From a virus (Duplodnaviria; Caudoviricetes), in IMG/VR virus record IMGVR_UViG_3300037067_001795, positions 9,772-73,771 of that record: DNA of 64,000 nucleotides. One strand, written 5' to 3'. Shown here piece after piece: positions 3,632 through 4,868 of the stretch. Within the stretch, counting starts at the first letter, position 1. The number at the start of each line of letters is the position of its first letter. The notes beneath the pieces were generated by a model. The model was not told the DNA's origin. It ran no database searches and saw only the letters and a program-made list of their open reading frames with translations. The position numbers and the translations under genes are program-made.

Positions 3632-3998
3632 CCCGCAAACTGTCTATCGGTTACACTTGCCGTTTCGCGGGATTTGGTTTGTGAGAAGCATCGCTGGTCT
3701 CGGTTACAACGCGCCTATCGCTTCTCGTTGGTTTGTCCTGACACGTTGTCCATCGGTTACAACGAGCACATCGTCAGGAGTTTGGATTGGGCTCTCAATG
3801 TGATGCTCGGTTGCATACGTACAATCGAGGGCCGTTTGTATTGGGGCTGTCCAGGTGCTCTTTCGGTTACAAGTCGATGATCGGACAGCCGTTGGATTGG
3901 GCCTAGCACCAGTCAAATCGGTTACAGGTTGATGTTCGCTAGGCTTTGTAAGGTGCCTGACAGGGGTGGAGTCGGTTACAATTCCCGTCTCGTCAGGC
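3632..3998 (-). ncRNA. Stem-loop TIGR-like guide array, downstream half (7 units)
   Basis: Plus-strand TCGGTTACA at 3647, 3700, 3753, 3807 (TCGGTTGCA), 3863, 3918 and 3972. Each copy has exactly 9 nt of unique sequence on both sides, bounded by CA and TCG, and is closed by a unit-specific 5-8 bp inverted repeat (e.g. GGCTGTCC/GGACAGCC, GCCTAGC/GCTAGGC). Confidence 0.9.
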
Positions 3999-4868
3999 TT
4001 TGTACGGTTTGAAGGGTGTATGAGTCCATTCCAGCCAGAGGTTCTTGAGTAGGAGTTTGGTAGCCAGCAGCATACCGTGACGGTGAGCGTGTCCACACTT
4101 CTCGCCAATACCTCCGCAGGTCATACACTTCTTCTTGGCTGGGTTCTTGCCCTTGCACTTGTCGCAGGGCTTCCACTCCCACTCTGGGTGTGTTTCGTGA
4201 GCCCTTATTTTAGCGTTCAGCCAACGTGTGCGGTACGGTCCCTCGCCGTTTTGCTTGATGATGTTTTCGCCTATCACGTAGGCAATGCTACGGCGTCGCG
4301 GACTGTAGCCGAAGTCAGTCCAGTCCTCTGCCGTCAGCTTGGTCACGGTCTTCTTGCCGCCACGGCTGCGCCACGAGGAACCCATCAGCGTCACATCGTC
4401 CTTCGTGTACGGTGCGCAGCCTAACCTACGCCACACCTTCGCGGGATTGGCATAGTTGTTCAGGTCACCGGTCTCGCCGATGATAACAGCCAACGACATG
4501 ATTCCGAAGCCAGCCTGCTCCGGCTCCGCGACCCACTTGGCCACGGGCATCCGCTTGGCCACACTGAGCATCTCCTTCTCGTAGATGGCCTGCTGCGCAT
4601 CAAAGCCGTCCACAGCCAAGCACGTGGTCATGATGAGACTACGGATCTCATGCTCGTCGCCCTCTATTACGCCCTTGATCACCTTGGTGGCTTCGCTGTA
4701 CAGCTTCAGCCGTTCGCTCTCCTTCAGTCCACTACTGTAGCCCATCGTTCCAGCCACGGTAGCTTGGAGCCTATTGGCGATCATGATCCTAGACTTGATC
4801 ACCCATGCTCGCTGTCGCTGCAAGGCTTGGAGTTCCGCGGACATGTCGGCCACTTCTTGCTTCTTCAT
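3993..4868 (-). CDS. TasA-like Nop/IS110 Tnp-domain RNA-binding protein (no RuvC/HNH), with Cys4 insertion
   Basis: Coiled coil LQALQRQRAWVIKSRIMIANRLQA; Transposase_20/Nop-like GFGIMSLAVIIGETGDLNNYANPAKVWRRLGCAP; C-terminal HAHRHGMLLATKLLLKNLWLEW. No N-terminal DEDD domain. Start chosen by AAGGAG RBS; alternative start 4883. Flanked by guide arrays. Confidence 0.85.
   Translation of the reverse strand: MKKQEVADMSAELQALQRQRAWVIKSRIMIANRLQATVAGTMGYSSGLKESERLKLYSEATKVIKGVIEGDEHEIRSLIMTTCLAVDGFDAQQAIYEKEMLSVAKRMPVAKWVAEPEQAGFGIMSLAVIIGETGDLNNYANPAKVWRRLGCAPYTKDDVTLMGSSWRSRGGKKTVTKLTAEDWTDFGYSPRRRSIAYVIGENIIKQNGEGPYRTRWLNAKIRAHETHPEWEWKPCDKCKGKNPAKKKCMTCGGIGEKCGHAHRHGMLLATKLLLKNLWLEWTHTPFKPYKA

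Follow-up and report, generated by a model that had tools for sequence, protein, structure and literature searches.

The gene tasA, encoded on the minus strand of the window (the whole stretch of 64,000 nucleotides analyzed here), lies between two sets of stem-loop repeats and specifies a short protein that carries a cluster of cysteines just before its terminal helix. This locus raises the question of what such a protein does in the genome of a tailed phage and what the cysteine cluster might contribute to its function. The following features of the window are relevant to this question:

3993-4868, minus strand: tasA, encoding a nuclease-free Nop-domain TIGR-associated protein of 291 aa from the ATG at 4868
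4875-4880, minus strand: Shine-Dalgarno sequence AAGGAG, read from the sequence, 6 nt before the ATG at 4868
4095-4166, minus strand: Cys4 insert of the predicted zinc-ribbon type, C240-x2-C243-x9-C253-x2-C256 followed by C263, with two DnaJ-type CxxCxG(xG) knuckles
3626-4002, minus strand: downstream stem-loop TIGR array of 7 units, recognized by unit layout and stem covariation; loops at plus-strand positions 3647, 3700, 3753, 3807, 3863, 3918 and 3972
4890-5293, minus strand: upstream stem-loop TIGR array of 7 units, recognized by unit layout and stem covariation; loops at plus-strand positions 4911, 4968, 5027, 5080, 5143, 5204 and 5263
5298-5834, minus strand: conserved 178-aa gene without an assigned function, next to the array on the upstream side of tasA

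A nuclease-free TasA protein in a tailed phage

The window is part of a tailed-phage genome that encodes a tape-measure protein, a portal protein, a virion structural protein and a helicase as well as AAA_24, PD-(D/E)XK and UDG genes. In an assembly of 4.85 Mb, this phage of about 74 kb is located on a contig of 73.8 kb, and its closest relative is a 73.4-kb viral contig. A small ORF at 751-930 (minus strand) reads like a CsrA-type RNA-binding regulator, and a called gene with a CsrA Pfam match was also observed near tasA in a related phage locus (L004:4958-5176).

The tasA reading frame is open from an ATG at 4883 (3993-4883, minus strand, 296 aa), from which the residue numbers given here are counted. 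Since the AAGGAG sequence is spaced 6 nt from the ATG at 4868, the latter is the likely start, in agreement with the sequence-only reading that preceded this analysis. The AlphaFold2 model of the protein, which was built on 35 relatives (mean pLDDT 90.3), begins with the long helices 8-45, 55-73 and 81-110 that constitute a coiled coil and continues into a helical C-terminal domain with a helix at 216-231, the cysteine cluster at 239-262 (pLDDT 73-86) and a terminal helix at 264-287. Only nine residues follow this last helix, and such tails are not conserved among relatives; this would fit the lack of a long C-terminal Y/H processing loop in the stem-loop class, although the nine residues include one H and one Y. 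Searches against Pfam, NCBIfam and PHROG found no RuvC, HNH or other nuclease domain in TasA, and none was found in ten longer relatives. There is also no room for RuvC or HNH, as the array abuts the tasA start codon with the nearest upstream guide unit ending at about 4890. The initial claim that the protein starts directly at the coiled coil and leaves no space for either domain was thus confirmed by the model helices, the position of the array and the domain searches.

Among the family models, NCBIfam NF052498 (TIGR_Tas_endo, "TIGR-Tas system RNA-guided endonuclease") matched TasA across positions 11-214 of 215 with an E-value of 1.3e-19 and a score of 71 bits, which is under the curated cutoff of 100, while Pfam yielded a weak, sub-threshold Transposase_20 match and nothing else. 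The top Foldseek hits of the model were TasH (9vzx, 9w03, 9w04) and TasR (9mty) with a probability of 1.00 and TM values of about 0.5-0.6, followed by the IS621 and ISCro4 recombinases. A profile of TasA relatives matched TasR 9mty with an E-value of 0.005; a single-sequence PDB search with TasA produced no match. The NF052498 match, the model and the 9mty profile all support homology of the coiled coil and the Nop-type C-terminal domain to those of the solved Tas proteins. Based on this family, this fold and the absent nuclease, the protein qualifies as TasA as defined by Faure et al. 2025 (PMC12045711). It belongs to a stem-loop TIGR system in a tailed phage and is a member of the known stem-loop TasA group, represented by PlTasA (from a Peromyscus leucopus gut contig), BlTasA and MbTasA (PMC12045711; 10.64898/2026.09.09.750476; 10.64898/2026.08.11.744272), which are likewise solo, phage-borne Nop-domain proteins that have their coiled coil at the N-terminus and lack a nuclease. 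The coiled coil and Nop C-terminal fold are likewise shared with TasR (9MTY) and TasH (9W04, 9VZX), including a homologous YR..Y helix and terminal helix. In contrast to this TasA with its stem-loop units and lack of a nuclease, TasR and TasH contain RuvC or HNH, cut DNA and employ 36-nt dual-repeat tigRNAs.

The search for relatives returned 436 word-index homologs and 2149 representative clusters. Isolated phages were represented by a single distant match in Rhizobium phage RHph_X2_25 (31% identity across half of TasA), and no locus was confirmed among the representative-genome contigs scanned for TasA relatives. Related strains that carry tasA were present in landfill, groundwater and wastewater runs, and 17 of the 18 listed tasA differences among them fell at third codon positions, which shows that the gene is under purifying selection.

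The RNA-binding C-terminal domain of TasA is homologous to that of the IS110/IS621 bridge-RNA recombinases, and both Transposase_20 and the IS110 model matched the protein weakly, the latter by aligning positions 120-265 of 343 with 30.9 bits versus a cutoff of 140. These matches could be taken to indicate that tasA is the decayed remnant of an IS110-type transposase without a present function. However, the locus, unlike IS110/IS621, has neither a single bridge RNA nor transposon ends, and TasA contains no N-terminal DEDD RuvC-like catalytic domain (no match to DEDD_Tnp_IS110 in Pfam). A decayed gene is also at odds with the predominance of third-position differences among strains, with the full-length relatives found by the hundreds in phage contigs, and with the fourteen intact guide units with covarying stems described below. 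We therefore regard a transposase remnant as exceedingly improbable.

Guide arrays, spacer turnover and predicted mode of action

The 9-mer TCGGTTACA occurs in 13 copies at a spacing of 53-63 nt on both sides of tasA, and a fourteenth guide unit has a degenerate loop. All 14 units exhibit the layout stem-CGA-N9-TG-TAAC-CGA-N9-TG-stem on the minus strand of the gene, an orientation that was assigned because the order box C, spacer, box D reads that way, and positions C11, G12, T23, G24, C28-G30, T41 and G42 are invariant among them. With two spacers per unit, each framed by a box C and a box D (UG), and a loop of 9 nt, the units have the symmetric box C/spacer/box D arrangement of tigRNAs and identify both clusters as TIGR arrays. 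Box C is CGA in this system compared with CCA in TasR and CUU/UG in PateTasR. In place of edge repeats the units have variable but complementary flanks, which are the hallmark of the stem-loop class. In the 7-bp stems (columns 5-11 paired with 42-48), 42 cells were changed on both sides versus 16 +/- 3 after shuffling (0/500), and the covariation score across the 14 units was 0.576 versus at most 0.145 for controls with slid partners. Stem-loop arrays that flank the gene, two 9-nt spacers in box C/D, a conserved 9-nt loop and stems that are variable but palindromic are all features in common with PlTasA, BlTasA and MbTasA. Together with family and fold, the arrays support the proposal of the sequence-only reading that the protein is an effector without a nuclease, working in a guide-RNA system.

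The 5' stem of the first downstream unit (GCCUGAC, window positions 3993-4002) includes the tasA stop codon (TGA), so that tasA and the downstream array overlap on one transcript strand. None of the runs recorded as RNA held the stretch; some wastewater runs labelled as RNA-Seq cDNA hold parts of it in the form of contigs, which may be DNA and do not reveal RNA ends. In a relative without the cysteine motif, two CGA-N9-TG...CGA-N9-TG units were observed at L002:3035-3130 within the 5' part of the tas gene (3001-3876), and these resemble the intragenic tigRNAs described by Xu et al. (10.64898/2026.09.09.750476).

Closer examination of related strains revealed where the arrays differ. In a contig that is about 95% identical over 3880-4637, 19 of the 22 substitutions in 3880-4005 were located inside the four 9-nt spacers of two units, while the loops and stems of both units were kept. 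Similarly, loose ends in two runs (3797, 4891, 5253) combined this stem and loop with different spacers. Between strains there is consequently spacer-specific turnover inside a fixed scaffold of stems and loops.

By homology with the solved Tas structures, two TasA molecules would pair via their N-terminal coiled coils and hold one tigRNA. Processing of the 14 stem-loop units, transcribed from the tasA strand, would release the tigRNAs. With a box C (CGA) and a box D (UG) around each of its two 9-nt spacers, a tigRNA would recognize a DNA site of 18 bp, one spacer base-pairing with each strand. The complex is predicted to bind and unwind this site and leave it uncut, which would block transcription or replication there; binding without cutting is expected because a nuclease domain is absent. 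The dimer and the cleavage-free DNA binding are thus modelled on related proteins. MbTasA has been examined by reporter repression and EMSA, and the tested TasA systems bound DNA and repressed transcription reversibly, with the target neither cut nor lost (bioRxiv 10.64898/2026.09.09.750476), while cryo-EM structures are available for PlTasA, and both PlTasA and FpTasA act as programmable activators when fused to VPR (bioRxiv 10.64898/2026.08.11.744272). The role of programmable repressor or roadblock that had been suggested for this protein from its sequence is therefore what other TasA proteins lead one to expect and is not new.

A nuclease gene that could supply cleavage in trans encodes a PD-(D/E)XK protein (2059-3186) about 0.8 kb downstream of tasA. 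TasA would in this case mark a DNA site for a separate nuclease and targets would be degraded. One relative also has a PD-(D/E)XK gene within about 1 kb of tasA, there in an upstream position. However, such genes cluster with tasA in only 5 of 29 loci, the gene in the window sits beside an AAA_24 ATPase gene as part of an apparently ordinary phage recombination module, and the reversible repression with retention of the target reported for tested systems (10.64898/2026.09.09.750476) does not fit degradation. We consider a nuclease acting in trans very unlikely and retain binding without cleavage as the expected activity.

Since box C lies at the unwinding junction in the published structures, one strand of a target would read as spacer A followed by the reverse complement of spacer B. 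The whole 4.85-Mb assembly was searched for targets of the 14 guide pairs, allowing both tandem geometries and gaps of 0-2; it contained no exact matches, and the counts at up to two mismatches corresponded to chance. The single match with one mismatch (C2:4995, gap 1) was positioned at a gene end and was within expectation. Guide-pair targets in 0.6 Mb of related loci and single 9-mer targets in the phage itself were at chance level, as were exact scans of viral contigs with the units at 3700, 3753 and 4968, which resulted in 1-2 matches each with gaps of 1-2 in unrelated contigs.

Conservation and possible role of the Cys4 insert

The minus strand of window positions 4083-4184 translates to EWEWKPCDKCKGKNPAKKKCMTCGGIGEKCGHAH. 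The two CxxCxG motifs that had been noted before the terminal helix (CDKCKG...CMTCGGIG) are present in this translation letter for letter, the complete knuckle repeats being CDKCKGKN and CMTCGGIG. The insert is 30 residues long and directly precedes a conserved H-x-H-x-H-G stretch (HAHRHG) and the terminal helix. In the alignment with TasR 9mty, the match runs to the YR..Y helix and picks up at HAHNRA about 8 residues on. As TasR resumes after these 8 residues where TasA has 30, the cysteine insert corresponds to "insertion 2" between CTD4 and CTD5 in the naming of Xu et al. (10.64898/2026.09.09.750476).

Within the 35 aligned relatives, C240, C253 and C256 were at least 90% conserved, and three members had a short linker instead. 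The motif was present in 126 of 222 relatives with an intact C-terminal region (about 55%) and absent in the other 96. Among 128 relatives that carry it, the second knuckle followed the pattern CxxC(x/G)GxG in 111, the median span from first to last cysteine was 18 residues, and the median net charge of the insert was +3 (range -6 to +6), which amounts to about 2.4 times the background charge density. The insert of this TasA is lysine-rich, and Lys/Arg residues are enriched in most members. Judged from these sequences, the motif is no chance cluster. On a tree of moderate resolution that was built without the insert columns, presence or absence of the motif required 59 changes versus 72 with shuffled labels (minimum 62), so the insert was lost or gained many times. 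Its absence from about 45% of relatives and its scattered distribution indicate that it is not needed for the core function. A lack of conservation, which the sequence-only reading had named as part of what would refute its proposal, was therefore not found: the insert is conserved, yet dispensable in many lineages. Several relatives have a different, acidic insertion of 40-60 residues that appears disordered and follows the KQN loop (alignment columns 393-456, past query residue 213); it is absent from this TasA.

The CxxCxGxG knuckle consensus is shared with the DnaJ cysteine-rich domain (1EXK). DnaJ, however, has four repeats with two zinc centres in a V-shaped domain that handles chaperone substrates, whereas TasA has two repeats (one centre), about 10 residues apart and embedded in an RNA-binding domain. 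Profile comparison with 1exk resulted in a weak match that was not significant (E 0.37), and Pfam gave no DnaJ-type match to the insert at E <= 1. We found no mention of zinc or cysteine in the TIGR-Tas literature examined, which included PMC12045711, 10.64898/2026.09.09.750476 and 10.64898/2026.08.11.744272. The predicted zinc ribbon that fills insertion 2 here, in contrast to the described stem-loop TasA proteins, is a real and conserved variant of this insertion that has apparently gone undescribed so far.

With regard to function, the most likely state of the Cys4 insert is a small, lysine-rich knuckle folded around a single zinc ion. Our best guess is a zinc-stabilized knuckle that contacts nucleic acid beside the His motif that binds box C. 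This contact is favored by the sequence position next to the His motif and the basic charge. The residues of PlTasA that correspond to this motif, H292, W295 and H299, are stacked against the adenine of box C and the displaced DNA strand, and box C and the stem are held by basic residues located farther down the terminal helix (10.64898/2026.08.11.744272). The insert would then serve as an optional brace that touches the nucleic-acid backbone at the unwinding junction or the stem base and would be neither catalytic nor a module for partner docking. The charge range of -6 to +6 suggests that such contact is not universal among inserts.

Loci with and without the motif have the same tigRNA core, spacing, loop type and stem length (median 7-8 bp), so the insert does not track tigRNA geometry and is no adaptation to a different guide shape. 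This equal geometry, the patchy distribution with many losses on the tree and the structural heterogeneity of insertion 2 across clades (10.64898/2026.09.09.750476) would also be compatible with a mere structural staple, in which zinc rigidifies a loop that became longer in this clade but does not specifically touch RNA, DNA or protein. The conserved glycine-bearing knuckle motif and the Lys/Arg enrichment in most members suggest more than a spacer, and a pure staple appears rather unlikely. Overall, we hold it to be probable that this protein is the effector of a stem-loop TIGR system that binds without cutting and uses its zinc insert as a nucleic-acid brace.

The conserved upstream gene and implications for TIGR-Tas systems

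The gene directly upstream of the array was the one conserved neighbor of tasA. Of 29 non-redundant close loci, 28 have a gene for a protein of about 170 aa at this position and in this orientation, and a profile search detected it in 53 of 85 loci (homologs include L006:2639-3181 and L004:2230-2742). The model of the 178-aa protein is helical (pLDDT 86.8), and no match was obtained in Pfam, PHROG, PDB sequences, Foldseek, VIA-align (best Z 5.3) or the protein atlas; a profile-based word-index search yielded just 7 proteins. Complex prediction of TasA with this protein gave a score of 0.00, which makes no call either way. According to Faure et al., TasA has no clear associated protein except for a ParB-like protein (tasParB) in some dual-repeat loci (PMC12045711). 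The conserved upstream gene sets this clade apart from the TasA of that study, and its association with tasA was not found described in the TIGR-Tas papers examined. The upstream protein is a candidate for an accessory factor to the TasA proteins of this clade. The ORF at 9191-10711 (plus strand, 506 aa) was rejected as an equivalent of tasParB, being 4.3 kb away on the other strand and matching only PHROG 5931 (function unknown); it has a Lys/Pro/Ala-rich tail.

Small zinc knuckles often mediate protein contacts, and with a protein-coding gene directly upstream in 28 of 29 close loci, the 178-aa protein would be the obvious candidate for a partner that docks at the knuckle and adds a further function, for instance tigRNA processing, recruitment or silencing. 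Docking of a partner had also been proposed in the sequence-only reading, and it found no support: the upstream gene accompanies both TasA proteins that have the zinc insert and those that lack it, so gene and insert are not linked in their occurrence, the only two His-containing motifs of the upstream protein are poorly conserved, and the position and charge of the insert point elsewhere. Docking at the knuckle thus seems unlikely, and contact with nucleic acid remains the more likely role of the insert.

A broader and equally tentative proposal, to which we would give little weight at present, is a two-protein TIGR system in which the upstream protein works with TasA, perhaps via the zinc knuckle where one is present. 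The upstream protein could act in stem-loop tigRNA processing, spacer renewal or effector activity. If true, this would explain both the missing factor for stem-loop processing and the spacer-specific turnover between strains.

Since a nuclease-free programmable repressor has already been published for relatives, the identification of this TasA is a solid annotation rather than a discovery. TasA proteins are under development as very small, PAM-free programmable DNA binders, and a putatively zinc-stabilized insert beside the helix that contacts guide and DNA is a handle on affinity or stability that can be tested because sister proteins without the zinc motif provide built-in controls. How stem-loop tigRNAs mature and how arrays gain spacers are both posed as open questions in the TIGR-Tas papers. 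The near-universal upstream gene of this clade is a concrete candidate for the former, while the replacement of spacers from strain to strain inside unchanged stems and loops provides material to address the latter.
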